A DNA stretch of 32,000 nt from Gemmata obscuriglobus (GCF_008065095.1 NZ_CP042911.1:3660001-3692000), one strand, 5' to 3'; positions 1 to 13,734 are shown, counted from the first letter of the stretch. The notes: generated from the sequence alone by a model not told the origin. Numbers and translations: made by a program.

Positions 1-1
1 C

Positions 2-76
2 GGGGCGATCATGCGGACGGTCGTGACCTTGGCCGTGATCGTGACGTTCGCCGCGATCTACCTGACCGCGAAGTGA
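2..76 (+). CDS. 3' end of an ORF entering from the left window edge, with a hydrophobic C-terminus (..MRTVVTLAVIVTFAAIYLTAK*)
   Basis: The frame is open from base 2 to TGA at 74-76. It contains one TM-like hydrophobic stretch. The stop lies 1 nt before palindrome copy 1, the same layout as other genes in the cluster. Confidence 0.25.
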   Translation, partial: GAIMRTVVTLAVIVTFAAIYLTAK

Positions 77-77
77 G

Positions 78-93
78 GTGGCCGCGCGACCAC
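78..93. repeat. Palindrome copy 1 (variant GTGGCCGCGCGACCAC, 1 mismatch)
   Basis: Read directly from the sequence. It lies 1 nt after the upstream stop. GGGAGG and ATG-111 follow 17 nt downstream. Confidence 0.9.
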
Positions 94-110
94 TTTTCGG
101 GAGGTCACGG

Positions 111-641
111 ATGGCGGGCGGGCGGGAGTGGACGACGGGCGAGGAGGCCGAACTGAAACGGCTCCTCGCTGCCGGAACGAAGCTGGCGACCGTCGCCAAA
201 CGGCTGAACCGGTCCTACTCGGCGGTGGCCCAGCGGGCGTTCCGGGTGTCGGGCCGGGAGCGGCTGCCCCGGCTCCACAAGGCCGGTGAGTTGGAGGAGC
301 GGGTGCGGTCGCTTTCGGTTCCCGGCGTTCCTGACGCGGTGGTCGCGGGCATCCTGGGCGTGACCCGGCAGACCGTTCTGAAGACCCGCCAGCGGCTCGG
401 TATCCCCCAGAGCGTACCGCCGAACGGGAAACTGCCCCGCGACCCGGCCAAGCGGTCGGACCTGTCGATCGCCGCGAAGGTGCTGTGGCTGTACTCGGGC
501 GTCGGGCGGTCCGATGTGGTGATTGCGAAGCGGATCGGCGTGTCGAGAACGACCGTCCGCGATTACCGGCTCAAATTCAACCTGCCGGCGTTGGGCGAAC
601 TGAAGTGTGGTCGCGCGACCACTACGGAGGTGCAGAAATGA
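111..641 (+). CDS. DNA-binding protein with three helix-turn-helix-like modules (putative phage regulator)
   Basis: ATG at 111 is preceded by GGGAGG. There are three HTH-like segments: WTTGEEAELKRLLAAGTKLATVAKRLNRSYSAVAQRA (Myb/GcrA-like), VPDAVVAGILGVTRQTVLKTRQRLGI and RSDVVIAKRIGVSRTTVRDYRLKF. The stop overlaps the thyX start (ATGA at 638-641). The 78 start in the ORF track is the GTG inside the palindrome. Confidence 0.65.
   Translation: MAGGREWTTGEEAELKRLLAAGTKLATVAKRLNRSYSAVAQRAFRVSGRERLPRLHKAGELEERVRSLSVPGVPDAVVAGILGVTRQTVLKTRQRLGIPQSVPPNGKLPRDPAKRSDLSIAAKVLWLYSGVGRSDVVIAKRIGVSRTTVRDYRLKFNLPALGELKCGRATTTEVQK
607..622. repeat. Palindrome copy 2 (perfect GTGGTCGCGCGACCAC)
   Basis: It lies inside the last codons of the HTH gene (encodes CGRATT). 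GGAGG and ATG-638 follow 15 nt downstream. Confidence 0.95.
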
Positions 642-1567
642 AAGTCATCACCGAGCCTTCGGTTTACGTCTTGGGCCGACAAACGGTCGATCAGGCCGAA
701 CTCGATCGATTTTTGGTCGACCACGGCGTGAGCTGGGAGAGTGACAGCGAGGTCGCTGGCGAAGTGCTCACGGAAACGGCGGGACGCGTCTGTTATATGT
801 CGTTCGCGAAGCCGCGACCGGGCGGCAACAGCGCGTACCTGACCCACATCAAGGAAGTGGGGCACGGGAGCGTGCTGGAGCACGCGGTGTGGAACCTGCT
901 CCTCACCGGGGTGTCGCGGTCGCTCACGCACGAGCTGGTGCGGCACCGCGCCGGGTTCGGGTTCAGCCAGCTCTCGCAGCGGTACGTGGACGAGTCGGTG
1001 GCCGAGTACGTGGAGCCCGACATCATCGCCCGCGACCCCGAGTTGCACGCGATCTGGCTCGAATCGGTGAAGCAGTCGCACGCGGCGTACATGAAGCTCG
1101 CCGACGCGCTCAGCGCGAAGCTAACGAACACGTTCGGTCCGTGCGACAACCCGAACTGTGAGCGTGGTTACCAAGCGGACCACCTGAAGGTTCGGACCTA
1201 TGTGGCTTGCCCCACATGCAAAGGGAGTCCCAGTAAGGCATGGTACGCTGCGCCGCTCGGTCGGTTTGTGCCGGGATGGGAGAACGGTCTGACCGCGACT
1301 GATCGCCGCAAGGCCGCGCGTCAGGCCGCGCGGAGCGTGCTGCCGAACGCCACCGAGACCAAGATCTTCATCACCGCGAACGCCCGTGCTCTGCGGCACT
1401 TCATGGAGCAGCGTGGATCGGTCCACGCCGAACCGGAGATTCGGAAGCTCTCGTGCGCGATCCTTGACGCGCTCCAGAAAGACGCCCCCAACCTCTTCAG
1501 TGACTACCAGAAGGTGCCCCTTCCCGACGGCACGTTTGAACTGGTGACGCAGTTCAAGAAGGTGTGA
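638..1567 (+). CDS. thyX: FAD-dependent thymidylate synthase ThyX with a Cys4 insertion
   Basis: Contains the ThyX signature RHRAGFGFSQLSQRY (RHRxxSxxxxSxR) and the conserved ARSVLPNATETKIFITANARALRHF block. ATG-638 is preceded by GGAGG. Confidence 0.9.
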   Translation: MKVITEPSVYVLGRQTVDQAELDRFLVDHGVSWESDSEVAGEVLTETAGRVCYMSFAKPRPGGNSAYLTHIKEVGHGSVLEHAVWNLLLTGVSRSLTHELVRHRAGFGFSQLSQRYVDESVAEYVEPDIIARDPELHAIWLESVKQSHAAYMKLADALSAKLTNTFGPCDNPNCERGYQADHLKVRTYVACPTCKGSPSKAWYAAPLGRFVPGWENGLTATDRRKAARQAARSVLPNATETKIFITANARALRHFMEQRGSVHAEPEIRKLSCAILDALQKDAPNLFSDYQKVPLPDGTFELVTQFKKV

Positions 1568-1578
1568 GGAGCCGCAGC

Positions 1579-1884
1579 ATGAGCCAGAAGTCCAAGTCCC
1601 CACAAGAGGTGGCGAGAGAGCAAACGCTCGCGATCTCGGAACACCTGTACCTCGCCGGCCGCGACGGGCTGACCGCCGAGCAACTGGCCGGCGCGGCCAA
1701 GTTTCCGGTCGAGATCGTTCGAAAGCGGCTCCACGCCGGCGGCCCGAACTGTGCGAACCCCGAGTGGCGGCGGTTCACGTTCGACCGGCTGACGAACCGC
1801 TGGGCACTGACGCTCGGTGGGGAGCAAGTTTTGAAGAGAAGTGGTCGCGCGACCACCCGCCCGGGGCGGCGGCGGATCGCCTGA
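1579..1884 (+). CDS. Small winged-helix-like protein, function unknown
   Basis: ATG-1579 is preceded by GAGGA. The segment LAGRDGLTAEQLAGAAKFPVEIVRKRLHA resembles a wHTH. The ORF reads through palindrome copy 3 (..SGRATTR..). Confidence 0.45.
   Translation: MSQKSKSPQEVAREQTLAISEHLYLAGRDGLTAEQLAGAAKFPVEIVRKRLHAGGPNCANPEWRRFTFDRLTNRWALTLGGEQVLKRSGRATTRPGRRRIA
1841..1856. repeat. Palindrome copy 3 (perfect)
   Basis: It lies inside the 3' end of ORF 1579..1884 and 45 nt upstream of ATG-1902. GGTCTACCATAA lies between it and that start. Confidence 0.95.
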
Positions 1885-1886
1885 CC

Positions 1887-1898
1887 GGTCTACCATAA
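1887..1898 (+). promoter_or_regulatory. Conserved 12-mer GGTCTACCATAA, copy 1 (contains the -10-like TACCAT)
   Basis: An identical 12-mer recurs at 9552..9563. Both end 3-4 nt before an ATG that lacks a good Shine-Dalgarno sequence. Confidence 0.4.
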
Positions 1899-1901
1899 AT
1901 C

Positions 1902-3290
1902 ATGAGCGTTGCACTGACCGGAACCGGTGGGTTCTTCACCCGCTTGGGGAAGCTGGGGAAGCTGCTCTACGCCGTCAACGGCGACCAGTCCGGGTACGCC
2001 ACCGTGTTCGGTGAGATCGCGGCCCAGTACGCGTCCACCCTGAAGGACCGGTACGGGGCACTGGCGACCGCCGAAACGGGGCTGATCCGCGGCCAGTCCG
2101 CGATCGTGTCGGCGGTGCAGCAGCTCGCCCAGCAGACCGTGCTCGACATGGTGGCGGCGGACCAGCCGGCCGCGGCCCGCAACCTGACCGACGCCCTGAA
2201 CGAGGTGCGGCGTCAGATGTTGGCGAGCGGCGACACGATCAAGGCGTCCGCGGTGGCCGTGACGGTCGCCGCACTCGGCACCCCGACCGGCTCCGGGGCG
2301 TTCGTCGCGAGCACCAAACGGGGCGACGGGCTCACACTGGAACTGCTGTTCCCGGAAACCGGCCGGCTGGTGTGCGAGGCGGACAGCTACTCGGACGGGC
2401 TGACGGCGGGCCGGGAGCGGTTCCGGTACGTCGGGGAGTCGGGGCTCAACGCGGGGGTGTTCGACTACGACTGGCCGGCGGGTTCGGACGCGAACCAGAC
2501 GCTGACGGCGGTGTCGGCGGACCAGAACGCCAGCACGACCGGGAACCTGCTGACCAACGGGAACTTCGAGACCTGGACCGGCGGCACCCCGACGCTCGAC
2601 GGCACCAGCGGCACGGCGTGGGTCGCGACCGGGACCGCCGGCACCGACTTCGCCCGCAACCCCACGACGCCGTTCCGCGGCGGCTACGACTTCGAGTTCA
2701 AGCCCGGGACCGGGGCGAACACGGCCCTCACCCAGACGTTCGGGGCCGCGACTGGCACGACCGCCGCATTGAAGCCGCTCACCAGCTACGCGGTCAACCT
2801 GTGGGCGAAGCGGACCGGCTCCGTCTCTGCTGGCGTTCTCACCGTCGAACTGGTGGACGGCAGCAATGCGGTTATCGCCGACGCCCAGAGCGCGAACAAC
2901 TCGTTCACGCAGTCGTGTTCCGCCCTCACCACGATCTACGCGGCCGTGAACGGCGTGTTCCGCACCCCTGGCGTGCTGCCAGCGACCATGAAGCTCCGGG
3001 TCCGGATGTCCACCGCTTTGACGGGTGCGGCGGTGCGGATCGACGACGTGTGTCTCACGCCGCTCACCGCCGCTTACCAGGGCGGACCCGGGCTCGCGAT
3101 TTTCAGTGGGGCGACACCGTTCCTGAAGACCGACGCGTGGACGGCGGCGGCGACCAACAACCGCGGCGGGGCGAGCTACGGGGCGACGTTCCAGTGCCTG
3201 CTCGACAGGTTCTTCGGCCTGCGGGCGCTCGGCATCCTGTTCCCCTCGAGCGGGTCGCCAACGATTGCGGACTCGCTGATCAGTGCTTAA
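1902..3290 (+). CDS. Phage structural protein with a carbohydrate-binding or jelly-roll-like central domain
   Basis: 462-aa ORF with good coding character. [13 protein letters not shown] and the surrounding Gly/Thr-rich beta-type sequence resemble CBM4_9/CenC-type modules. It sits directly upstream of the tail-fibre gene. Confidence 0.5.
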
Positions 3291-3306
3291 GTGGTCGCGC
3301 GACCAC
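3291..3306. repeat. Palindrome copy 4 (perfect)
   Basis: It starts immediately after TAA at 3288-3290. GAGGG and ATG-3322 follow 15 nt downstream. Confidence 0.95.
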
Positions 3307-3321
3307 TCGCGAGGGCTCCGA

Positions 3322-4755
3322 ATGGCGGACGCGAAAATCAGCCAACTGACCGCCGCATCGCCCGCGGGGGCGGACTATTTGCCCATTCTGGACGTGTCGG
3401 ACACGTCGATGGGTCCGGGCGGCAGCACGCGCAAGGCACTGGTGTCGGACGTGGCCGCACTGGCGGTTGCCGGTCTCGGCACGGCCGCGGCGAGGAACAC
3501 CCCGGCGAGCGGTAACGCCGCGTCCGGTGAGGTGGTTCTTGGCAGTGACACCCGGCTCACCGATTCGCGTGCCCCGACGGCCCACACCCATCCGTGGTCC
3601 CAGATCACCGCGACCCCGACGACTCTGGCCGGGTACGGGATCACGGACGCTGTCAACACGTCGGACACCCGCTTGACGAACGCCCGCACCCCGACCGGGG
3701 CCGCCGGTGGCGACTTGGCAGGCACGTACCCGAACCCGACGCTCGGGACTTCTGGAGCGACACCCGGCACTTACACGCTCGCCACAATTACTGTTGACGC
3801 CAAGGGGCGGGTGACGGCGGCGGCGAACGGTGTGGGCAACACCCCGGCCGGCAACTCGGGCGAACTCCAGTGGAACAACGGCGGGGCGTTCGGCGGGGCA
3901 GGGGCCTTAACATACGCCGCGACCGGTACACACCTGCTCGCCACCGCACAGGGCACCGGCGTGGTGCCGTTCGCGGTTCAGGCGACGACAGGACAGACGG
4001 CCAACCTCGGCGAGTACCGGAATTCGTCCGGCACCGCACGAGCCTACGTCACGCCGTCGTTTCAGGGCGTTTTTGAGGGGCCGGGCACTTCTACGGGCAA
4101 CGTGGTGCTCGGCATCAACGCCGGTGCGGCCAACAACTACAACAACTCGGTCGTTATCGGTAACACCGCCAGCGTAACGGGTAACTTGGCCGGGGTAATC
4201 GCGATTGGACAAAGCTCCACCGTGAGTGCGTCTGGGGCGATCGCGATTGGACAACTCGCACAGGCCGGAAGCAGCGGCATCGCGATCGGCGGTAACACGC
4301 AGGCTACCCTCGGCCGCCAAGTGATGATTGGGTCGGGAACGAACGCGGCGAACCGGTCGGCGATTGTGTGTGTTGCTAACGCCCCGCCCACCAACCAGAC
4401 TTCCGGCTGGTTCACCTGGACATCTGAACTCGCGACAAACAAACCGTCCTTTATAGCGGCCACATCGTCTGCTAGCGGCACGTCCCGCACGGTTGGCGGT
4501 GTGCAGTGTGAGTGGGCTACCTCGACGGACGCTTCTCGGTTGGGCCGGGCTGCGTTAATCGCGTTCAACGGGGACACCATCCAAGAGGGGTTACGAGTCG
4601 AAGCAGCGTCAGGTGCTCCTCTAATCGGTGTGTTCGGATCTACGGCAGTTGCCAAACAAACGGTCACCGGGTCGCGGGGCGGTAACGCGGCACTGGCTTC
4701 TCTTCTCACCGCACTGGCCAACTTCGGCTGGATCACCGACTCTACTACCGCTTGA
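3322..4755 (+). CDS. Phage tail fibre protein
   Basis: The N-terminus [24 protein letters not shown] is typical of tail fibres. It also has the LAGYGITDA and [18 protein letters not shown] motifs, YadA/Hep_Hag-like repeats ([27 protein letters not shown]), and a C-terminal [38 protein letters not shown] motif seen in minor tail proteins. Confidence 0.85.
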
Positions 4756-4765
4756 GGATAAATTT

Positions 4766-5110
4766 ATGCTGAAAGTGTTCGAACCGGTAATCACCCCGCA
4801 CCGATTGACTGTGACAAACACCGTGTGGCGGTGGATGGGTAACAGCAACGATCCTCGCGGAACTATCGTAGTAGTTATGTGCGCGTATCCGGACATCGAA
4901 ACCGCTTCGGCGGCGACCGGACCCGACGCCGCCCCTCCCTTAATTGAAGAGCGGTACTCAATCACAGGCAACGACTTCCTGGCGTTGGCAGCCCAACTCG
5001 AATCGCCGACTGGTGCGGGCAAGCCGTACTCGCAGTGCGTCTACGACCACTTCCGCGCGAAAGTGCCGCGGTTCGCGAACGCGGTCGATGTGGATCCGAT
5101 CGGGGGCTGA
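4766..5110 (+). CDS. Small protein downstream of the tail fibre (possible fibre assembly or chaperone protein), hypothetical
   Basis: ATG-4766 lies 10 nt after the fibre stop and is preceded by GAGGA. It has no recognisable motif. It lies in the same visibly lower-GC patch as the fibre 3' end. Confidence 0.5.
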   Translation: MLKVFEPVITPHRLTVTNTVWRWMGNSNDPRGTIVVVMCAYPDIETASAATGPDAAPPLIEERYSITGNDFLALAAQLESPTGAGKPYSQCVYDHFRAKVPRFANAVDVDPIGG

Positions 5111-5113
5111 TTT

Positions 5114-5566
5114 GTGGCACTTGATGTTCTGTTGTTGGAGGATGGTGGCCGACTTCTGCTTGAAGACGGCGGCCGTCTGCTGCTGGAGTACTCTGCTCCG
5201 GATGCGATCCATGGCTGGGTCGCGGCTCCGGGGCAGCGGGTGTGGGTGGCCGGGAGGAGTGCGATGGGGGCTCTCGTCCGCAGCGTGATCGAGAAGACCC
5301 CGGGGGACTCGCTCCGGCTGTTCATGGACTTCGGCGACGTGCCGGAGATCGACGCCGGGGCCAAGATCGCGTCCTGCACCGTGGGCGTGGCGCCGAGCGG
5401 CCCGACGGTCGTAACGCCCGCCACGGTCAACACCGCCGGTTATCTCGCGTCCACGAAGATCGGCGGCGGCGAAACCGGTACGGATTACGAGGTGACGTTC
5501 ACCGCGACGCTCGACGACGCCGACGGGACCGTGATCGCCCGGTCGGGCACGTTGCAGGTGCGGTGA
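5114..5566 (+). CDS. Phage protein with N-terminal LLLEDGGR tandem repeats and a beta-rich C-terminal domain
   Basis: GTG-5114 lies 3 nt after the previous stop. The N-terminus reads VLLLEDGGRLLLEDGGRLLLE. The LLLEDG repeat is a recurrent N-terminal motif in phage tail-region proteins. Confidence 0.6.
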   Translation: MALDVLLLEDGGRLLLEDGGRLLLEYSAPDAIHGWVAAPGQRVWVAGRSAMGALVRSVIEKTPGDSLRLFMDFGDVPEIDAGAKIASCTVGVAPSGPTVVTPATVNTAGYLASTKIGGGETGTDYEVTFTATLDDADGTVIARSGTLQVR

Positions 5567-5582
5567 GTGGTCGCGCGACCAC
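5567..5582. repeat. Palindrome copy 5 (perfect)
   Basis: It starts immediately after TGA at 5564-5566. GGGGGG and ATG-5598 follow 15 nt downstream. Confidence 0.95.
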
Positions 5583-5597
5583 CCGGGGGGATCAGCC

Positions 5598-6131
5598 ATG
5601 ACGTTCGGTCAGGTGCCGGTGCGGATCGAGGATCTCGTCGAGCGGCTGGTGAAGCAGCTCCAGGCGAGGACCGGGTTGCCGGCGGACTGCGTGTTCGAGA
5701 CGCTGGCCGACGACCAGGATCACTGCGAGTTCCCGGCCGCGGACCGGTTCGTGACGGTCACGCCGCAGCGGTTCCAGCGGGTGCCGGGGCTGTGGGACGG
5801 GGCAGGGCGGTGCCTCGAAGGCTGGGACGGGACGTTCCGCGTCGCGTGCCTGTCCCGGTTCGCGTCCGACCAGCAGTTGCGGAGCACCCGCGAGCTGCGG
5901 GACAAGACCCGGTCCGCCCTCGCACTGGTGCTGAAGGTGGTGGACGGGCTGGACGGGTACAAGATGCCGTCCGCGACCGAGCCGACGAAGTCACTGCTCC
6001 GGGAGCCGGTGAAGGGCCTCGACATCGACGTGCGGCCGAAGCGGCTCAAGGTCGGCCCGTGGTCCGTGATCGGCTCGGCCTGGAGCGTCAAGTTCATCCT
6101 CGCGGTTCCGGGCGGGACCGCGGACCCGTGA
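5598..6131 (+). CDS. Hypothetical phage protein
   Basis: 177-aa ORF bracketed by palindrome copies 5 and 6. It has coding-like composition and no recognisable motif. Confidence 0.55.
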   Translation: MTFGQVPVRIEDLVERLVKQLQARTGLPADCVFETLADDQDHCEFPAADRFVTVTPQRFQRVPGLWDGAGRCLEGWDGTFRVACLSRFASDQQLRSTRELRDKTRSALALVLKVVDGLDGYKMPSATEPTKSLLREPVKGLDIDVRPKRLKVGPWSVIGSAWSVKFILAVPGGTADP

Positions 6132-6133
6132 AA

Positions 6134-6149
6134 GTGGTCGCGCGACCAC
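6134..6149. repeat. Palindrome copy 6 (perfect)
   Basis: It lies 2 nt after TGA at 6129-6131 and 7 nt before ATG-6157. Confidence 0.95.
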
Positions 6150-6156
6150 CGCAATC

Positions 6157-8175
6157 ATGCCCGTCACTTACGCCGGTATCGACCTGACGCCGCCCGCCTT
6201 CGCCCCCGCGGAGGTGGAGCGGTGGTGGCACGCCCACCGGGTCACGGAGTTCGAACACCCCGCCTACCTGACCGCGGGGATCGATCACCTTCCGCTGCCG
6301 GCCCCGCCGTCGCGGCACCCGCCCCGCGTGGGCGTGCTCCACTGGCCGAACGGGGCGTCCCGCTGGGCCACGTGCCACCTGCTCGCGACCGGGGGGCAGC
6401 TCGCCCGGTTGCCGACCTCGTCCGCCGCCGCGGGCCTCGTGATCTCGGACGGCACCCGTTCAGTGACGGCCCCGATGTACCGGCTGGCCGCGCGCCCGGT
6501 CTCGCAGCGGGGGGACGGGGCGGAACTGTACCTCGTCACGCTGGTGGACGAGCGGTACTACTGGTGGCAGTCGGGCGACGGGCTCGCCCCCGCGTCGCCG
6601 GCCTCGTGGTCCGCCCTCCTGACCTCCCTGTTCACGGCAGTCGGGGTGGTGGCGAGTGTTGGCTCGATCAACTCGAACTACGGCACCCCGGACGCTACGC
6701 GGTGGGGGGTCGGGTACGCCGCAATCCCGCTCCTCATTGATGCCGCGGCCCGGACGGTCGGGATGCGGGTGGTGCGGTCGCTCGCCGGGGCGGTGTCGGT
6801 CGTGAACTACGCGACCGCGGCGGCTTCTGATTCGTCGCAGTGGGCCACGCACAAGAACGAGGTGATGGCCGGCGGTCGCGAGTTGGTGTCGGAAATCGGG
6901 CGGCAGGTGCCCGCCTCTGTTGGCGTTGTCTTCCCGGGCGATTCACCGAACGTTACGACGAAGACCCTCTCCGGCTTGGCACTGACCGAGTACGGAGCCG
7001 CAACGGGCGTCAGCGGTCGCGTGGGCCGGGTCGGGGCGGACCTCGCCGCGACGGCCGGATCGACGCCCCGGGACAACTACGCCACGCAGGCCGCCACCGA
7101 TTACTACCTCTGGCAACTGTCGCTGACGGACGCGACGCTCCGGAGCGTGCGGGCGTGGACGCCGACCGGGTTGGAGTCGTGCGTCGAGTGGTCCGCCGGC
7201 CGAGACGAACTCCTCACGCGGGTGCTGAGAACGCCACTGAACCAAGGCGAGCAGTGGGGGCAAAAAGTCCCGTCCGGTTCGCTCACCGCCATCAACTCGC
7301 CGACGAACGTCACGGTCAAGAGCGGCGTCACGACCATTTATGCCAGCATCCCGACCGGCCTTCAATGGAACGGGTCGGGAACGGGCGCCGGCGCGGTGCG
7401 GTTGGAGACCATCGCCGCCTCGACGACGCAGCAGGGCACGGTCACGACCGCTGACCAGAGCTTCCGCGGCGTGAAGACGTTCGACGGTGCGCCCCTGGCT
7501 CCGTCCGGGGTGTACGCGGCGGGGAACTCGTTCATCGGCTGTGGCGACGCGTTCTACTCACTCGCCACCCCTCAAACGATGGCGTGGCCGACGCGGCTGG
7601 AACTGGTCGGACCGTACGGCGGGAACGCGTCCGACGTGACGCTGCCCACCACCGCGGACGTTACGGTCATCGGCGGCAGGGTTGCGACGGGGTTGGGAGG
7701 TGCGGTGACCACGCTGTTCAACCTTCCGCGTGAGACGTTGGGGGGAATAACGCCGGTGTGGGCCGACCCGGATTATCCCGGCGGGTCGCCCGACTCGTCC
7801 CACGACACCAGCGACCTGTGGGTCGTTCCCGGATCGCGGCCGGGCCGCGATCCGACGGTAAACCCCGAGACGTTCCCGCGCGCCTCCCCGCAGTACCCCG
7901 GTCGGCTTATGCTGGTCGGCAAGTATGGAACGGTAGAGACGCTACCCGACAACCTCGGCGGGAACGCGACCTTTAACACCTACACCGGCATCAGCCAGTC
8001 GTTCGCGCGGCAGACGTTCGTGAATGGAATCCTGGTCGATAACCAGAACTGGCCGAACAACAACGGCGCGCAAGAAGTGGCGGGGCTGCACTTCTACGAC
8101 GGGGTGTTCAGCTACCAACTAGGACCGGCGATTCTGACCGAACCGGGCGACGGCATCGCCGGAGGGACGTACTAA
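6157..8175 (+). CDS. Large phage structural protein (putative tail or baseplate-associated)
   Basis: 672-aa ORF in the tail-fibre neighbourhood. Its stop overlaps the next start (TAATG at 8173-8177). No specific family is recognised. Confidence 0.6.
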   Translation: MPVTYAGIDLTPPAFAPAEVERWWHAHRVTEFEHPAYLTAGIDHLPLPAPPSRHPPRVGVLHWPNGASRWATCHLLATGGQLARLPTSSAAAGLVISDGTRSVTAPMYRLAARPVSQRGDGAELYLVTLVDERYYWWQSGDGLAPASPASWSALLTSLFTAVGVVASVGSINSNYGTPDATRWGVGYAAIPLLIDAAARTVGMRVVRSLAGAVSVVNYATAAASDSSQWATHKNEVMAGGRELVSEIGRQVPASVGVVFPGDSPNVTTKTLSGLALTEYGAATGVSGRVGRVGADLAATAGSTPRDNYATQAATDYYLWQLSLTDATLRSVRAWTPTGLESCVEWSAGRDELLTRVLRTPLNQGEQWGQKVPSGSLTAINSPTNVTVKSGVTTIYASIPTGLQWNGSGTGAGAVRLETIAASTTQQGTVTTADQSFRGVKTFDGAPLAPSGVYAAGNSFIGCGDAFYSLATPQTMAWPTRLELVGPYGGNASDVTLPTTADVTVIGGRVATGLGGAVTTLFNLPRETLGGITPVWADPDYPGGSPDSSHDTSDLWVVPGSRPGRDPTVNPETFPRASPQYPGRLMLVGKYGTVETLPDNLGGNATFNTYTGISQSFARQTFVNGILVDNQNWPNNNGAQEVAGLHFYDGVFSYQLGPAILTEPGDGIAGGTY

Positions 8176-9176
8176 TGGCCCAACGGACTTTCATCCGCTC
8201 GGTTACCACGTCGGGCAACGCGCCACTCGGGCGGCTTACGGCGATCGTCCCCGATACGCTGCTGATCGGCGATCTACCCGGGACGGGCACGCCCAGCAGC
8301 AGCACTTACCTGCGGGGCGACGGGACGTGGGCCACGCCAAGCGGGAGCGGCACGGTCACCAGTGTGAACCTTACCGCCCCGGCCGCCGGACTCACGGTGT
8401 CGGGCGGACCGATCACATCTTCGGGCAGTATCACGCTGGCGCTCGCCGACGACCTCGCCGCCCTGGAAGCTTTGACCGGCACGAACACCCTCTACTACCG
8501 CAGCGGGGCGTCCACCTGGAGCGCCGTGACGATCGGCAGCGGGTTGTCCTTCACCGGCGGCACCCTGTCCGCGACGGGCGGGGGCGGCGGGTCGGGAACG
8601 GTCACGTCCGTCGGCATCACGGCCCCGGCGGCGGGAATTACCGTCAGCGGCTCACCGGTCACCACCAGCGGCAGCATCACACTCGCCCTGGCGAACGACT
8701 TGGCGGCACTGGAGGCGTTGAGTGGGACGAACACGATCTACTACCGCTCGGGAACCTCGACGTGGTCGCCGGTCACCATCGGTTCGGGCCTGACGTTCAC
8801 CGGCGGGACGCTGAGTGCGTCGGGCGGCGGCCCGACCCCCACCCCGACCTCGGTAGCTCCCGGGTCGTCCATCACCGCAACCGCCAACACCGAGTACATC
8901 ATCGCGGGGGGCATCCCCGCCACCTTGGCGACGATCAAGCTGCCCACGTCCGCCAGCGTCGGCGACTTCTTGACGATCATCGGGTTCGGTGCGGGCAAAT
9001 GGAAACTGACCCAGGATCTGAGCCAGAACATCCACGACGCGGTGCTGGGCGACACGACATCCGGCCCGACCGGGTACGTCCTGGCGACCAACCAGTACGA
9101 CTGCATCACCTTGCGGTGCGCTGCCACGAACGATTGGGTGGTCAGCCACCGGAACGGCGTCCCGACCGTCGCGTGA
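8175..9176 (+). CDS. Second tail fibre-like protein with an internal ~82-aa tandem duplication
   Basis: Contains the YLRGDGTWATP motif common in tail fibres. Two ~82-aa units follow, starting GSGTVTSV(N/G)(L/I)TAPAAG.. and running through ..SITLALA(D/N)DLAALEAL..YYRSG.STWS.VTIGSGL.FTGGTLSA. Confidence 0.8.
   Translation: MAQRTFIRSVTTSGNAPLGRLTAIVPDTLLIGDLPGTGTPSSSTYLRGDGTWATPSGSGTVTSVNLTAPAAGLTVSGGPITSSGSITLALADDLAALEALTGTNTLYYRSGASTWSAVTIGSGLSFTGGTLSATGGGGGSGTVTSVGITAPAAGITVSGSPVTTSGSITLALANDLAALEALSGTNTIYYRSGTSTWSPVTIGSGLTFTGGTLSASGGGPTPTPTSVAPGSSITATANTEYIIAGGIPATLATIKLPTSASVGDFLTIIGFGAGKWKLTQDLSQNIHDAVLGDTTSGPTGYVLATNQYDCITLRCAATNDWVVSHRNGVPTVA
8343..8825 (+). repeat. Intragenic tandem duplication (units about 8343-8588 and 8589-8825)
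   Basis: The two protein units are about 85% identical by eye. The DNA copies differ at many synonymous sites, so the duplication is old. Confidence 0.8.
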
Positions 9177-9185
9177 GACCCCGCC

Positions 9186-9527
9186 ATGAGACGCACACTG
9201 TTCGTCTGCCGCAACGGTTGCCGCCGGCAGTTGCTCCGGGACACGGGTCGCATCCCGGAGCCGCCGGCGTGCCCGAAGTGCGGGCGGCCGATGGTGCGGT
9301 TGAAGAAGAGGGGGCACCCGCGGAAGCTCGGCTTGCAGGCGGCGATCCGCAAACTGCTCCGCTCGTCGGCCGTCCCGGTCAGCACGAGCGACATCGGCTG
9401 GATCGTGTGCCCGGACCGAAAGAGCCCCCGACTGACCGTTTACGGGCTGCTCCGGCGGATGCTGGCCCGCGGCCGGGTGCGGCGAGTGGCGTCGTCGCAC
9501 CAGAGCGGGGCGTTCTGGACGGCGTGA
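9186..9527 (+). CDS. Small zinc-ribbon plus winged-helix-like protein
   Basis: Contains CRNGC..(16 aa)..CPKC, a Cys4 pattern, then the basic helical segment RLTVYGLLRRMLARGRVRRV. Its stop abuts palindrome copy 7. Confidence 0.5.
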   Translation: MRRTLFVCRNGCRRQLLRDTGRIPEPPACPKCGRPMVRLKKRGHPRKLGLQAAIRKLLRSSAVPVSTSDIGWIVCPDRKSPRLTVYGLLRRMLARGRVRRVASSHQSGAFWTA

Positions 9528-9543
9528 GTGGTCGCGCGACCAC
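9528..9543. repeat. Palindrome copy 7 (perfect)
   Basis: It starts immediately after TGA at 9525-9527 and lies 24 nt upstream of ATG-9568. GGTCTACCATAA lies between. Confidence 0.95.
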
Positions 9544-9551
9544 TCGGGGCG

Positions 9552-9563
9552 GGTCTACCATAA
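9552..9563 (+). promoter_or_regulatory. Conserved 12-mer GGTCTACCATAA, copy 2
   Basis: Identical to 1887..1898. TACCAT ends 6 nt before ATG-9568. Confidence 0.4.
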
Positions 9564-9567
9564 GGTA

Positions 9568-9810
9568 ATGGACGACTCGAACGTTTCCTACACCGCCGTC
9601 AGCTCCTCGAACGTGTCAGCGGTCGGCTACGACACCGCGTTCAAGCGGCTCTGGGTGAAGTTCAAGAGCGGCGACGTGTACGCCTACGAGTCGGTCCCGT
9701 CCCACGTCTACCTCGACATGCTGCGGGCCGCGTCCGTCGGCAGCTACCTCTGGCGGGTGGTGCGGGCGAACGGGACCGACTCCCTGTACGCCTACGCGAA
9801 GGTGCGGTAA
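9568..9810 (+). CDS. KTSC domain-containing protein
   Basis: SSNVSAVGYDTAFKRLWVKFKSGDVYAYESVPSHVYLDMLRAASVGSYL matches the KTSC pattern (S.I..vGYD....L.V.F..G.vY.Y..VP..vy..l..A.S.G.Y). Confidence 0.7.
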   Translation: MDDSNVSYTAVSSSNVSAVGYDTAFKRLWVKFKSGDVYAYESVPSHVYLDMLRAASVGSYLWRVVRANGTDSLYAYAKVR

Positions 9811-9817
9811 CCGCCGG

Positions 9818-9833
9818 GTGGTCGCGCGACCAC
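9818..9833. repeat. Palindrome copy 8 (perfect)
   Basis: It lies 7 nt after TAA at 9808-9810. GGAGGG and ATG-9855 follow 21 nt downstream. Confidence 0.95.
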
Positions 9834-9854
9834 CCCCGACCTGGAGGGCCGACG

Positions 9855-9953
9855 ATGATCACTCTGATGCTCACGTTGTTGCTGGCCACCGTCCCGGAAC
9901 GCCCGCACACGGCCCCGGCGACGCCGCCGGCGAAAGTGTCTTCCGAACCTTAA
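9855..9953 (+). CDS. 32-aa hydrophobic peptide (MITLMLTLLLATVPERPHTAPATPPAKVSSEP)
   Basis: It is below the ORF-track size cut-off. It has the same palindrome, GGAGGG, ATG layout as neighbouring genes. It has a TM-like N-terminus and ends 17 nt before the S8 protease start. Confidence 0.35.
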   Translation: MITLMLTLLLATVPERPHTAPATPPAKVSSEP

Positions 9954-9970
9954 ACACACACGGAGCAGTG

Positions 9971-11161
9971 ATGCGATCTTACGCAGCCGCAGTCGCGACC
10001 GCGCTGATTCTGGGGCTTGTTGGTGTGGCTCTGCCGCCGGCCGCCCCCAAGGGTGCGATCCCCGTCGTTGCGGCCCCGGCTCGGGCGGGCGACGACCCGC
10101 CGGATCGGGAGTACAAGCTGCCGCCCAACGAACTGGTTCCGACTGCCGTGCAGGCACTGACCGACGCGGGCGACGTGGCCGACTGGGGGCACGCCGTCGT
10201 CGGTGTGCCCGACGCGTGGAAGGTGACCAAGGGCAAGGGCGCGAAGGTGGCCGTGCTCGACACCGGGTGCGACTCCGGGCACCGCGATTTGAAACCGCAA
10301 ATTGTCGCCGCCCGTGACTTTACGGGTTCGCGGTCGGGCAGTTCCGACGTGAACGGGCACGGCAGTCACTGTGCCGGGATCGTGCTGGCCGCCGAGAACG
10401 CGGTCGGCATGGTGGGCGTCGCGCCCGAGTCACAGTTGATCGTTGGCAAAGTGCTGGGCGATTCGGGGAGCGGTCTGTCCAGCGGAATCGCGGCCGGCAT
10501 CGACTGGGCGGTAGAGCAGGGGGCCGACGTGATCTCCATGAGCCTCGGATCGCCCACCGAAGACGCACGCATCCGGGCGTCGATCGCGGCGGCCCGAGCG
10601 AAGGGCGTGCTGGTGATCGCCGCGGCCGGCAACGAGGGGCCGCGGGAGGGGACGGTGGGGTATCCGGGCGGCACGCCGGGGGTGGTCTGCGTCGCGGCGA
10701 TCGACTCGGCACTCGCCACCGCGTCGTTCAGCAGCCGTGGCAAGCAGGTGCAGGTGGCCGCCCCGGGAGTGAACATCCGGTCGTGTTATCCGGGCGACCG
10801 GTTCGCCACGATGAGCGGCACCAGCATGGCGACCCCGTATGTGGCCGGTTGCGCGGCACTGTACGTGTCCCGATGCAAATCGCTGGGCGTGAAACCGACC
10901 CCGGACGACTTCGCCCAGCGGATCGCTTCCACGAGTAAAGACCTGCCCCCGAGCGGGCGCGACACCGCCACCGGGTTCGGCCTCGTCCAGCCGGCCAAGT
11001 TGCTGCCCACGTCCTCGCCCGTTCCCGATCCGAAGGATCCGACGGTGCCCGTTCCGGTCCCGGTCCCGGTCGGCGACAAGCTGGAACTGTTCCTGCCCGG
11101 GCTGACGGTCGGCGGTCGCCCGGTCAAACGGATCGTCCTCGAACTGGAACCCAAGCCGTGA
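9971..11161 (+). CDS. Secreted subtilisin-like serine protease (peptidase S8)
   Basis: The catalytic triad motifs are VLDTGCD, HGSHCAGIV and GTSMATPYVAG. The N-terminal signal or anchor is MRSYAAAVATALILGLVGVALPPAAP. ATG-9971 is preceded by GGAG. The C-terminal linker is Pro-rich. Confidence 0.92.
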   Translation: MRSYAAAVATALILGLVGVALPPAAPKGAIPVVAAPARAGDDPPDREYKLPPNELVPTAVQALTDAGDVADWGHAVVGVPDAWKVTKGKGAKVAVLDTGCDSGHRDLKPQIVAARDFTGSRSGSSDVNGHGSHCAGIVLAAENAVGMVGVAPESQLIVGKVLGDSGSGLSSGIAAGIDWAVEQGADVISMSLGSPTEDARIRASIAAARAKGVLVIAAAGNEGPREGTVGYPGGTPGVVCVAAIDSALATASFSSRGKQVQVAAPGVNIRSCYPGDRFATMSGTSMATPYVAGCAALYVSRCKSLGVKPTPDDFAQRIASTSKDLPPSGRDTATGFGLVQPAKLLPTSSPVPDPKDPTVPVPVPVPVGDKLELFLPGLTVGGRPVKRIVLELEPKP

Positions 11162-11427
11162 GCAATCACGCACTGTTCGGTGCCGCCTCTGCGTTACCCG
11201 AACAGTTGCTCCTGAAACGGAGACCCGCTGTGAACGAGAAGTACCTAAGCGAACTGAAGGTGTGGGCCATTCGGGCCGCGGTCGTGATCGCTCTGAGCGT
11301 CACGACCGCCCTCATCAACCGCTACCTCGGTGTTCAAGTCGAGGTAGCGCCCCCGCCGGTTCAAGTGGTCGTGCAACCGGCCCCCGGAACCGAGCAGCAA
11401 CCGACCGTAACGGTCACCCGCCCCTGA
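11158..11427 (+). CDS. Small single-pass membrane protein
   Basis: The GTG start overlaps the protease stop (GTGA at 11158-11161). The TM segment is VWAIRAAVVIALSVTTALI and the tail is Pro/Val-rich. Confidence 0.45.
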   Translation: MSNHALFGAASALPEQLLLKRRPAVNEKYLSELKVWAIRAAVVIALSVTTALINRYLGVQVEVAPPPVQVVVQPAPGTEQQPTVTVTRP

Positions 11428-11467
11428 CCTGCCGCCCCTGACCTGCCGCCCCTGACCTGCCGCCCCC
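11418..11467. repeat. 14-bp tandem repeat CCCCTGACCTGCCG, about 3.3 copies
   Basis: Full units lie at 11421-11434, 11435-11448 and 11449-11462. Each carries a TGA (11425, 11439, 11453), and these fall in three different reading frames. Confidence 0.9.
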
Positions 11468-11508
11468 GCAGTTTTACCCGGACCCGATACCCGAAAGCCG
11501 AGCGACTC

Positions 11509-11895
11509 ATGAAAACCTTAACGATTCTCCGGATCTTTGCTGTCGCCGCCGTCGCCGCGTTTGTGACGCCCGATTCGGCGTCGGCCGGTCCGATCCGGCA
11601 GTGGGTCCGCGACCACCGGCCCGGGATCATCGTCCCGAAGCGGTCCGCCCCGTCGTGCGGGTCGTGTCAGACCGCCCCGGCCCCGCTGCCCCCCTCGCCC
11701 ATCACGGACCCGGGGCTCGAGATCAGCCCGTTCCCGGCCGCGACGGCTGGAGTGGTCCAAACCGGCGGCTGCAACGGCGGCACCTGTCCGGCACCTCAAT
11801 TCGCCCCCGGTCGGTGGTACGTGGTTCCGGCTGCTGGCGGGTGCCCGGGCGGAACCTGCCCCGCCCCGCAACGGCTCGTGATCCCCGTGAAGTAG
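11509..11895 (+). CDS. Secreted Cys/Pro-rich small protein
   Basis: The signal peptide is MKTLTILRIFAVAAVAAFVTPDSASA. The motif GGC.GGTCPAPQ is repeated. Confidence 0.6.
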   Translation: MKTLTILRIFAVAAVAAFVTPDSASAGPIRQWVRDHRPGIIVPKRSAPSCGSCQTAPAPLPPSPITDPGLEISPFPAATAGVVQTGGCNGGTCPAPQFAPGRWYVVPAAGGCPGGTCPAPQRLVIPVK

Positions 11896-11907
11896 ACCGA
11901 AGTACCG

Positions 11908-11923
11908 GTGGTCGCGCGACCGC
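11908..11923. repeat. Palindrome copy 9 (variant GTGGTCGCGCGACCGC, 1 mismatch)
   Basis: It lies 12 nt after TAG at 11893-11895. AGGAG and GTG-11961 lie downstream. Confidence 0.85.
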
Positions 11924-11960
11924 GTTCCGTTTCCCAATTCCCTGAATCAGGAGTCCGTCC

Positions 11961-12155
11961 GTGTTTCACCTGCACGCCCACTACCACGCCGGCGCCCCAG
12001 CGGTCACCCAGAGCGGGGCCGACGCCCAGGCGATCGGCGACGGCACACTGCTCCGGCTCATCCCCCAGATCATTGCGTTGCTGGTCCAGTTGGGGCTCAT
12101 CAAGCTCCCGGCCGGAACCGTGTCGCGTGACGGTGAGCCGTCGCCCACGCCGTAA
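11961..12155 (+). CDS. Small hypothetical protein with a hydrophobic helix (LLRLIPQIIALLVQLGLI)
   Basis: GTG start preceded by AGGAG. It is the last ORF before the tRNA-fragment junction. Confidence 0.35.
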   Translation: MFHLHAHYHAGAPAVTQSGADAQAIGDGTLLRLIPQIIALLVQLGLIKLPAGTVSRDGEPSPTP

Positions 12156-12294
12156 CGAACCCGGTGGCAACGCGGTGGCAATGAACTTCCGTGCCGTTTG
12201 GTTGATAGTGAACGAATTTGCAGTATTCGGCTTCGGAAAGCCCTAGTTTTGTAGGGCAAAATGCGTCAGCGTTGTTACCGTGCCGATCTGCTGG

Positions 12295-12341
<47 letters not shown>

Positions 12342-12349
12342 CTTGAAAA

Positions 12350-12372
12350 CCCCTGCAAAAGCAGGGGTTTTT
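12350..12372. terminator. Bidirectional intrinsic terminator
   Basis: CCCCTGC-AAAA-GCAGGGG is flanked by AAAA on the left and TTTTT on the right. It lies between the tRNA fragment (+) and the end of the minus-strand ORF at 12393. Confidence 0.8.
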
Positions 12373-12392
12373 CATTTGAATCCGCATCTGAA

Positions 12393-12812
12393 TTATTCGC
12401 TGTGCACCTTTGCGTCGCCGCAGAGCTTCTGAAACCGTCTGAACGCTGCTTCCCTGTCCCGCCCCAAATTGATCTGCTTGCCCCCGATTTTCACGTACCA
12501 GCACTGGTTGAACGTGCGGAGCCAAGGCTTTGAAGGGCGCCCGGGCCTTCGGGCGCAGTGGTTTGTCACGTCAGAAGGGTGAAATTCAAACGTTGTGGGC
12601 CACTCGGGCTCGTTCTCTTCGTGCCACTGCCGGTGGAGCTTTGCGCAAAGCCAACGAACCGTCAACCACTTCGCAGGGTAGTAGCTGTCGTGGTGGGCCT
12701 GTCCCCGCCTGCCGCAAATCTGACACGGTTGTCGCAGCAGCGTACCGTTTGCAATTGCCACCGCAACTGCTGAATGGGCCTGACTTTGGAGATGGTACGC
12801 GCGGTTGTCCAT
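12393..12812 (-). CDS. Small HNH-type endonuclease-like protein with a C-terminal extension
   Basis: CQICGRRGQAHHDSYYPAKWLTVRWLCAKLHRQWH fits the C..C....HH......LC..CH...H HNH/zinc pattern. Start taken at ATG-12812 (MDNRAYHL..). The C-terminal segment KPWLRTFNQCWYVKIGGKQINLGRDREAAFRRFQKL resembles integrase N-terminal arm-type domains. Confidence 0.55.
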   Translation of the reverse strand: MDNRAYHLQSQAHSAVAVAIANGTLLRQPCQICGRRGQAHHDSYYPAKWLTVRWLCAKLHRQWHEENEPEWPTTFEFHPSDVTNHCARRPGRPSKPWLRTFNQCWYVKIGGKQINLGRDREAAFRRFQKLCGDAKVHSE

Positions 12813-12947
12813 GCGCTGAACTTGCCTGAGCCTGCACCAAATGTCAACGATTACCTGCACCAAACCCCGGCTGCTCTGGCCGGGGTTACGTCATTTCGGC
12901 ATCGCGTTCAGCCGGGCGAACTCCCCGGCCCAGTGGTGTGATCGCCG

Positions 12948-13160
12948 TCAGGTCGTGGTGAGCACCTCCAGCTGGTCCTCACGGACCTCGACGTACGCTG
13001 GATTTGGCTTCCGTCCGACCCGGACCCGGTAAATCTGCGCACCGCCCGGACCGAGAGGGCCGCGCAATTCAACGATGCGGCCCTTCATGCCGGCCGAGTA
13101 GCGGATTTTGACCCGGTCACCGAGGACCGGGTTCTTGGCGGACTTCTTCGGGGTCGGCAT
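12948..13160 (-). CDS. 70-aa basic protein, translationally coupled to the upstream HEPN gene (candidate partner or antitoxin)
   Basis: ATG-13160 is preceded by AGGAGGG and lies 10 nt after the HEPN TAA. The sequence MPTPKKSAKNPVLGDRVKIRYSAGMKGRIVELRG..IYRVRVGRK has a small SH3/KOW-like beta character. Confidence 0.55.
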   Translation of the reverse strand: MPTPKKSAKNPVLGDRVKIRYSAGMKGRIVELRGPLGPGGAQIYRVRVGRKPNPAYVEVREDQLEVLTTT

Positions 13161-13170
13161 CGCTCCCTCC

Positions 13171-13734
13171 TTACGGCGGCCACGGATCACGCCGCAACTG
13201 TCGCTTTAATCGATTGTACATGACGCGGTCAAGCGATGCCGCCAGCCCGTCACAGGAATTTCGCCAATTCCGGAGGTCGGTGACGGATGGCAGGCCGGTA
13301 GGGGGAACTGTCCCTTGGTGGGCGGCAATATTCCGCCACTCGTTCAACTTAGAGAGGTGTGTAATCCGAGGCGGGTTCGCGATGTCAGCGGCGGCCAAAT
13401 CGAGCGTAAAGCCGAACCGCTCGAAGTCCTTTCGGATGTTGCTGAGGTTGGGGTTACCGTGGTCGAGGGCTCGGTGCGCGGTGAACTGCGATTGGACCAT
13501 CGCCTGAAGCGTGATCCGCACCCGCGACGCAATGACCTGCGCGCACTCAGAATACAGATCGCGACAGAAACCTTGAAAGTGCGCGCTCAGCAGCAATCCG
13601 TACCCCCGCACGTTTTCTTCAAACAGGCGAGGGTTTGGTGGGGAAACGAGCGACGAGGATGCGCACTGGAGATCGACCTCTTGAAGATGGATCATTCGGG
13701 TGAGACGCCACACCCCCAACGAAGTCGACGGCAT
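13171..13734 (-). CDS. HEPN-domain protein (putative RNase; Abi/toxin-like)
   Basis: Canonical Rx4H motif RNIAAH at aa 134-139 (nt 13318-13335) within LNEWRNIAAHQG. Upstream helical block LLLSAHFQGFCRDLYSECA is like the MAE_28990 / RiboL-PSP-type HEPN families. The sequence is all-helical in character. Confidence 0.6.
   Translation of the reverse strand: MPSTSLGVWRLTRMIHLQEVDLQCASSSLVSPPNPRLFEENVRGYGLLLSAHFQGFCRDLYSECAQVIASRVRITLQAMVQSQFTAHRALDHGNPNLSNIRKDFERFGFTLDLAAADIANPPRITHLSKLNEWRNIAAHQGTVPPTGLPSVTDLRNWRNSCDGLAASLDRVMYNRLKRQLRRDPWPP

Follow-up and report, generated by a model that had tools for sequence, protein, structure and literature searches.

Cluster A mycobacteriophages such as L5 and Bxb1 carry 20 to 30 or more near-identical stoperators, which lie mostly in short intergenic gaps with few in promoters, and whose motif varies between phages in step with the repressor (PMC6550527). 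Each of these sites spans 13–14 bp without dyad symmetry and is recognised by a repressor that has two domains and acts as a monomer (PMC6550527, PMC9283540). Cluster O mycobacteriophages, which are not known to lysogenise, carry a 17-bp palindrome, 5'-TGTTCGGNNNCCGAACA, with 7-bp arms and a 3-bp AT-rich spacer; more than 30 invariant dyad copies are found per genome, both intergenic and within open reading frames (ORFs), and none in the host genome, and a dimeric DNA-binding reader has been proposed, its identity and function not having been established (PMC4351075). In Cluster K, the start-associated sequence (SAS) is a short conserved motif just upstream of many starts (PMC3203893). No Gemmata phage has been isolated (PMC5707555). 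In this study, we examined a 32,000-nt stretch of the Gemmata obscuriglobus chromosome (NZ_CP042911.1:3660001-3692000; hereafter the window, with positions counted from its first base), which contains part of a prophage whose gene junctions carry a 16-bp palindrome, GTGGTCGCGCGACCAC. We read this palindrome as a multi-site double-stranded DNA operator, present about once per kb, of a temperate Gemmata phage, and predict that it is read by a winged-helix protein of the phage, GobsT_31170; we put the probability of this reading at about 0.5. A sequence-only reading of the window had already suggested a dimeric, stoperator-like operator, and this is still the best interpretation. We infer from sequence that the protein binds these sites, dimerises, represses rather than activates and is expressed in the lysogen.

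In line with the Cluster A system, about 33 sites are dispersed over the prophage, five of them lie by promoter-like boxes, and the sequence variant follows the predicted recognition helix of the candidate reader. A polarity of the sites, described below, also recalls the co-orientation of stoperators with transcription. Unlike stoperators, the sites are perfect palindromes of 14–16 bp and the host phylum is Planctomycetota; the candidate of about 106 aa also shows no likeness to the gp71/gp69 repressors that is detectable by Pfam or PHROG, a pairwise alignment with gp71 not having been made. Given the dyad symmetry and the unrelated candidate protein, we regard the element as an analogue of the stoperators and not as a member of that class. 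The Cluster O repeat is similar in its many dyad-symmetric copies, intergenic as well as intragenic. It differs in sequence and in possessing a spacer, and here a candidate binder is provided by co-variation and some sites lie beside promoter-like boxes. SAS, for its part, is asymmetric, sits within a few bp of the start codon and takes in the ribosome-binding region. The palindrome here stands apart from the Shine-Dalgarno sequence, at 7–47 nt from the start. Phage phiC31, reportedly described in this respect by Ingham and colleagues in 1994 and Wilson and colleagues in 1995, is said to carry conserved inverted repeat (CIR) operators of about 17 bp in many conserved intergenic copies that are bound by its repressor; this is a similar multi-copy inverted-repeat operator with a different repressor family and a different sequence. 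The ParB/parS, KorB/OB and Noc/NBS systems also use multi-copy palindromes of 13–16 bp with helix-turn-helix (HTH) readers, and KorB sites regulate many operons of mobile elements. The present system resembles ParB and KorB in its multi-copy perfect palindrome and its predicted HTH reader. Identity with ParB/KorB was rejected, as the G. obscuriglobus protein lacks the N-terminal (CTPase) domain of ParB and no Pfam ParB domain was found in protein P0001, in its 40 homologues or in the fusion protein of the related locus L063.

With one mismatch allowed, a scan of the window finds the palindrome nine times, seven of these copies being perfect (Table 1). Past position 11,923 we found zero matches at up to two mismatches, and the matches with three mismatches (at 6222, 11601, 20033 and 31476) are at chance level, shuffled sequences giving a mean of 1.02 at up to three mismatches. 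The 12-bp core GGTCGCGCGACC, searched at up to one mismatch, recovered the identical nine sites, a number reached in 0 of 100 shuffles. A reading of the copies as a CRISPR-like array was rejected. With coding frames assigned by third-position GC and by Pfam and PHROG matches, a recheck of the positions placed the start of seven of the nine copies 0–12 nt past the preceding stop, and the other two (607 and 1841) within the last codons of ORFs 111-641 and 1579-1884; the next start lies 7–45 nt downstream in all nine cases. In these respects the description given by the sequence-only reading was accurate. A GGAGG-like Shine-Dalgarno sequence lies between copy and start for six copies and is missing for those at 1841, 6134 and 9528. 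One further statement of that reading was too strong: where a gene has no copy, its distance from the gene before it does not always stay within 10 nt, being 17 nt at 9953 to 9971 and 81 nt at 11427 to 11509.

The window holds only the right end of the prophage, which extends over at least 33.5 kb. By walking through assemblies of the same strain, we joined 21.3 kb of upstream DNA to the window, giving a composite of 53 kb, and found the motif to run on at equal density for at least 21 kb upstream. The cluster is thus not confined to the window, in which only the right third of the array could be seen. The whole prophage carries about 33 core copies at up to one mismatch, at gene junctions and on both strands; in its upstream part copies also adjoin minus-strand genes and occur in a divergent intergenic region. 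The proposal that the motif delimits nine expression units does not survive this count over at least 33.5 kb, with four copies in frame inside the portal gene and five near a promoter-like box. Its apparent specificity for the phage, on the other hand, was supported. In comparison with host repeats of the repetitive extragenic palindrome (REP) or bacterial interspersed mosaic element (BIME) kind, the palindrome has 0 copies in the 19.8 kb of adjoining host DNA, the only host stretch counted, and is carried by related viral contigs.

These relatives were reached by two routes. With the motif, an exact-match scan of IMG/VR yielded one many-copy contig (L008/L135; 16 copies in 14 kb, 58% GC), whose common proteins are 30–50% identical to those of the prophage. 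A scan of genome collections with the 16-mer gave at least one multi-copy locus among the matches listed, in the Gemmata metagenome-assembled genome L063; nearly all of the matches listed were lone chance occurrences in high-GC bacteria (at least 120 entries). With the protein, ten more loci, several of them short, were fetched via homologues of the winged-helix protein, and each homologue-bearing locus with intergenic DNA has a multi-copy palindrome of the same design. Overall, the related uncultured phages show 30–55% protein identity, and each has many copies of the palindrome or of a symmetric variant. A search for related loci with the 462-aa structural protein of the prophage and a tblastn search against GenBank phages found no relative, and an IMG/VR scan with a broader protein alignment returned only the two contigs already found. 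As a weak negative control, locus L140, fetched via an unrelated prophage gene, has neither the motif nor the winged-helix gene; L142 is too short to judge.

Comparison of the motif across these genomes (Table 1) revealed that all copies within one genome share one version, and that the changes between genomes are pairwise symmetric. Hairpins evolving independently would be expected to diverge within a genome, so the concerted behaviour of the copies is explained by a reader acting in trans. One locus departs further: in L149 the GTCAGCGCTGAC palindrome has arms like those of the main motif and a centre that is 2 bp longer, and it flanks the most divergent homologue examined (helix ISVRLNL).

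The sole protein family common to the prophage and to both loci found by the motif (L008 and L063) is that of an HTH protein ending in YxPGxxARGGYV. In the prophage the family is represented by GobsT_31170 (106 aa), whose gene lies about 1.5 kb before the window on the minus strand, in the opposite orientation to the genes around it; an imperfect motif copy precedes its start by 13 nt and a second copy lies 118 nt upstream. The protein has an N-terminal basic helix, the helix-turn-helix and the conserved C-terminal Y-x-P-G-x-x-A-R-G-G-Y-V. A protein search found 48 clusters among 1.84 billion representative proteins, with G. obscuriglobus as the only named organism; no Pfam family covers these clusters, and no PHROG family was found for GobsT_31170. 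In an AlphaFold model built from the single sequence (pLDDT 68), a small beta unit comes after three helices, as in a winged helix-turn-helix. Its closest counterparts in sequence and fold, all of them weak, belong to the DNA-binding domains of GntR, MarR, Lrp and DeoR regulators: a profile search against PDB sequences gave a best E of 0.033 (a GntR-family regulator, weak), fold matches had E > 0.1, and there was no Pfam GntR match.

The motif version and the predicted recognition helix change together. In 6 of 6 loci, helix V-R-x-E-[ML] accompanies TGGTC (mixed C/TGGTC in L141); T-E-[IV]-R-R-Q-L is paired with CGGTC (L134 and L144), R-R-[QR]-[ML] with TGGCC in three proteins (L146, L152 and L143), and V-R-L-N-L with the palindrome of L149. 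The homologue tree is star-like, with pairwise identities of 23–51%; the two proteins associated with CGGTC are 38% identical and do not group in it, and their helices are nearly the same. Furthermore, protein P0017 was selected beforehand for having Q where its close relative P0015 has E, and its locus proved to carry TGGCC. The concerted copies within each genome, together with this link to a protein helix, favour a trans-acting reader of sequence over a stem. Because GobsT_31170 is found together with the motif and its recognition helix changes with the motif variant, it is a likelier binder than those suggested earlier (the products of 111-641, 1579-1884 and 9186-9527).

The winged-helix gene is typically alone on the strand opposite to its neighbours, and often convergent and overlapping with the next gene; a lone gene on the opposite strand is a common layout for genes expressed from a prophage. 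In two phages the overlap is with a convergent Cro/CI-type HTH_3 gene (L001, 8097-8417 (-) with 7886-8116 (+); L141, 10001-10321 (+) with 10260-10520 (-)), an arrangement that may form a switch via convergent transcription. At most other loci the winged-helix gene is convergent with whichever gene follows. In L063 (3035-4441 and 4485-5741), the winged-helix/RGGY module forms the middle of a 418-aa protein beside a gene for an NrS-1-like primase-polymerase, with two motif copies spaced 54 bp apart upstream. The predicted DNA-binding module is therefore also found in a replication context; the L063 homologue alone has a larger N-terminal extension.

How such a protein might act is suggested by a second sequence element. 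TACCATA occurs six times in the 53-kb composite, always within the prophage, and five of these boxes follow a motif copy at 2–34 nt and point in the direction of the next gene. Besides the two in the window (Table 1), TACCATA(A) boxes lie 16449, 7394 and 489 nt upstream of window base 1 (L138/L001), and the same arrangement of palindrome and TACCATA is found in L141. A third box with a gap of 5–6 nt between TACCAT and ATG precedes a head gene upstream of the window; this spacing suggests that such boxes are −10 elements of leaderless or near-leaderless transcripts. On that assignment the palindrome would cover the −35/spacer region in four of the five boxed sites, and at 1841 it lies farther upstream, at about −46 to −61. 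We propose that GobsT_31170 would bind the palindrome, probably as a dimer. At the roughly five boxed sites the bound protein would overlap the −35/spacer region (not at 1841) and control initiation; at the remaining 28 or so copies, which have no TACCATA box and are placed between genes or in frame inside them, it would hinder elongation as a roadblock or belong to a silencing array spanning the genome, in the manner of Cluster A repressors at their stoperators.

Several observations weigh against this operator model. Departures from the consensus number 49 in the 5' half and 18 in the 3' half of the sites in mRNA sense (p ~2e-4), or 28 versus 7 when scored per site, with orientation taken from crude gene calls and from sites that are not independent, so that we treat this polarity as a lead; perfect palindromes carry no orientation, and it can be measured in imperfect sites only. 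The polarity comes mainly from L141 and G. obscuriglobus and is absent in L146 and L144; in L141, where it is strongest, the sequence along the mRNA strand is C(C/T)GGTCGCGCGACCAC to either side of the divergence point. A plain symmetric dimer operator does not predict such polarity. In addition, nearly every gene has a copy just 5' of its Shine-Dalgarno sequence, which leaves room for a role in the transcript, and the symmetric changes between genomes are as compatible with a stem in RNA or DNA as with a dyad operator. As to the protein, the structure model comes from a single sequence at a pLDDT of 68 and every match to a known DNA-binding domain is weak; a number of the loci are short and were reached through the protein itself, so that co-occurrence is partly built in; the co-variation rests on 12 loci; and the prophage offers other HTH candidates, namely the products of 111-641 and 1579-1884 and two Cro/CI-type proteins upstream. 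The polarity might be accommodated if the palindrome were a polar, transcription-coupled signal, with the winged-helix/RGG protein reading the non-template strand or the nascent RNA and setting termination, read-through or re-initiation for each gene. Such a signal would explain the better-kept 3' half and the copies hugging stop codons and, if true, would represent a new mode of whole-genome control in phages; we hold it to be decidedly doubtful. A transcript element without such coupling, which we consider unlikely, would be a GC hairpin placed after the stop and before the Shine-Dalgarno sequence and serving as a 3' stabiliser, a processing signal, a terminator lacking a U-tract or an RNA-protein site, for which the RGG-containing winged-helix protein could itself be the RNA binder. 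The copies do lie at transcribed junctions, 0–24 nt after stops and 7–47 nt before starts, with a polarity relative to transcription; as RNA they can form, as had been pointed out, a 6-bp stem with a GCGC loop (−8.1 kcal/mol); and the changes between genomes from U-A to C-G at positions 2/15 and 5/12 are compensatory. Within a genome, however, the sequence is kept rather than pairing alone; single-site variants mostly break a pair on the mRNA strand (C-A or C-C commonest) and G-U is not favoured. About half of the L137 sites leave positions 1/16 unpaired, and the stem stops at 16 bp, the flanks showing no complementarity beyond it and just a symmetric purine/pyrimidine bias. In contexts of 60–99 nt the stability is within that of shuffles (z −1.8 to +1.2), and the minimum-energy fold lacks the hairpin in three to four of the nine. 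Nor does the palindrome resemble a classical terminator, in agreement with the sequence-only reading. The copy at 78 is followed by TTTT, no U-tract follows window copies other than those at 78 and 11908, and a simple terminator scan flags only 11908 among the nine; terminator-like sites were not above shuffles, promoter and terminator consensus scans returned nothing above shuffle level, and Rfam gave no match at gathering score in window 1-13000. Copies also occur in a divergent promoter region and within the portal ORF, where cleavage or termination would do harm.

The two other explanations that we considered concern who reads the sites and why they spread. The operator might be read by another factor, be it the 111-641 product with its two HTH motifs, the 1579-1884 product, a Cro/CI-type protein or a host regulator conserved in the Gemmataceae, the winged-helix protein being merely co-inherited. 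This would fit the presence of at least five HTH proteins encoded by the prophage, the 1579-1884 homologue in L137 and the relatedness of all motif loci, by which shared ancestry could give rise to the co-occurrence. Yet the winged-helix family alone is present in all motif loci, including the two that were found by the motif, its helix-3 residues follow the motif variant across lineages that do not cluster, and the prospective prediction for P0017 held. A host factor would not account for variants specific to each phage, and the related loci yielded no homologue of 111-641 or 9186-9527; another reader is therefore rather improbable in our estimation. More remote still is the idea that the repeats are substrates of genome evolution, either micro-homologies or recombination sites for the exchange of genes or modules or a tiny mobile palindrome, with protein binding being secondary. 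Gene order does differ among the relatives while each shared gene keeps its flanking copy, the presence of a copy differs between homologous junctions, and insertions and deletions in Cluster O have been attributed to repeat recombination (PMC4351075). We regard it as very unlikely that this is their main role: no target-site duplication and no extended conserved flank were found, and recombination leaves the concerted switch with the recognition helix, the promoter association and the polarity unexplained. Insertion of a mobile element was ruled out by the same lack of target duplication and conserved flank.

Some copies lie within coding sequence. Among the copies at up to one mismatch inside well-defined ORFs, 12 of 13 are read in the frame that encodes GRATT (Gly-Arg-Ala-Thr-Thr). 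These include the tails of 111-641 and 1579-1884, the tail of a regulator gene in L148, and the portal genes: that of G. obscuriglobus has four in-frame copies in a disordered, non-conserved C-terminal extension, and that of L008 has four or five. Both phages encode giant portals of the Mu type (over 1270–1438 aa) with a long C-terminal extension of low complexity (L138, 1-3818, upstream of the window; L008, 5550-9866 (-)). All GRATT peptides use identical nucleotides and the majority of copies are non-coding, which indicates that the object of selection is the nucleic-acid sequence; on the same grounds a role at the protein level, for example as a protease site, was ruled out. The GRATT frame is the most tolerable translation of the palindrome.

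We know of no account of how phages of Planctomycetota regulate their genes, and the 16-mer was not found in the searchable literature. The kind of element is a known one; its novelty lies in the phage lineage and the family of the protein, and in having a palindromic form, a fixed coding frame and specificity classes. The signature motif defines a new phage lineage, and with it comes a new family of small predicted DNA-binding proteins, in which at least three operator specificities are tied to few helix residues. This set of specificities leads to testable predictions of heteroimmunity and may supply orthogonal repressor-operator pairs for the scarce genetic tools of planctomycetes. It also provides a candidate answer for phage repeats that are without a reader, such as the Cluster O palindromes, to which the same co-variation approach is applicable.

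Table 1. Positions of the palindrome copies and promoter-like boxes in the window, and palindrome versions in the related genomes
Feature	Position	Strand	Context or genomes
Motif copy GTGGCCGCGCGACCAC, 1 mismatch (5' half)	78..93		1 nt past upstream stop; ATG 111 is 17 nt on
Perfect copy, GRATT frame	607..622		Last codons of ORF 111-641; ATG 638 (thyX) is 15 nt on
Perfect copy, GRATT frame	1841..1856		Last codons of ORF 1579-1884; TACCATA 34 nt on, ATG 1902 45 nt on
TACCATA, −10-like box	1891..1897	+	TACCAT to ATG 1902: 5 nt
Perfect copy	3291..3306		0 nt past stop of 1902-3290; ATG 3322 is 15 nt on
Perfect copy	5567..5582		0 nt past stop of 5114-5566; ATG 5598 is 15 nt on
Perfect copy	6134..6149		2 nt past stop of 5598-6131; ATG 6157 is 7 nt on
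Perfect copy	9528..9543		0 nt past stop of 9186-9527; TACCATA 12 nt on
TACCATA, −10-like box	9556..9562	+	TACCAT to ATG 9568 (KTSC-domain gene): 6 nt
Perfect copy	9818..9833		7 nt past stop of 9568-9810; ATG 9855 is 21 nt on
Last copy GTGGTCGCGCGACCGC, 1 mismatch	11908..11923		12 nt past stop of 11509-11895
Version TGGTCGCGCGACCA			G. obscuriglobus, L008, L063, L137 (11 copies in 10.5 kb), L148
Version with GGTCGCGCGACC core, mixed outer positions C(C/T)GG...CCAC			L141 (14 copies in 12 kb)
Version CGGTCGCGCGACCG			L134, L144/L145
Version TGGCCGCGCGGCCA			L146 (10 copies in 11 kb), L143, L152
GTCAGCGCTGAC-type palindrome	36-51, 392-407, 687-702 of L149		L149

From left to right, the prophage comprises a giant Mu-type portal fusion gene with head genes, then small genes on both strands, among them several for HTH proteins, and finally the genes of the window. 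The latter include thyX, structural and fibre genes, a KTSC gene (9568-9810) and an S8 peptidase gene; ORF 5114-5566 matches the Pfam family Gp77, a fibre-tail adaptor. The right end of the prophage lies near 12.2–13 kb, where GC drops from about 0.68 to 0.60. Host genes beyond about 12.2 kb belong to planctomycete families (DUF1559, PSCyt2/PSD1) and include an nSTAND/Mrr and HEPN defence pair. Adjoining the prophage end, 13171-13734 (-) encodes a RiboL-PSP HEPN protein, and beside it 13920-16625 (-) encodes a 901-aa Mrr-nuclease/nSTAND NTPase; local GC at the pair is 0.60 against 0.68 in the prophage, and the two genes look like a defence island. In the late region of the prophage, a 32-aa hydrophobic, proline-rich ORF (9855-9953) lies directly 5' of the subtilisin-like S8 peptidase gene (9971-11161) and could encode a leader peptide or a substrate of the peptidase. 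The thyX gene carried by the prophage (638-1567) encodes a flavin-dependent thymidylate synthase and shares an ATGA overlap with the preceding HTH gene. Around position 709, 68 nt into thyX, the contigs of two independent Logan assemblies of G. obscuriglobus runs (L001 and L003) end while a third reads through, and this shared break could reflect a repeat or a structural variant.

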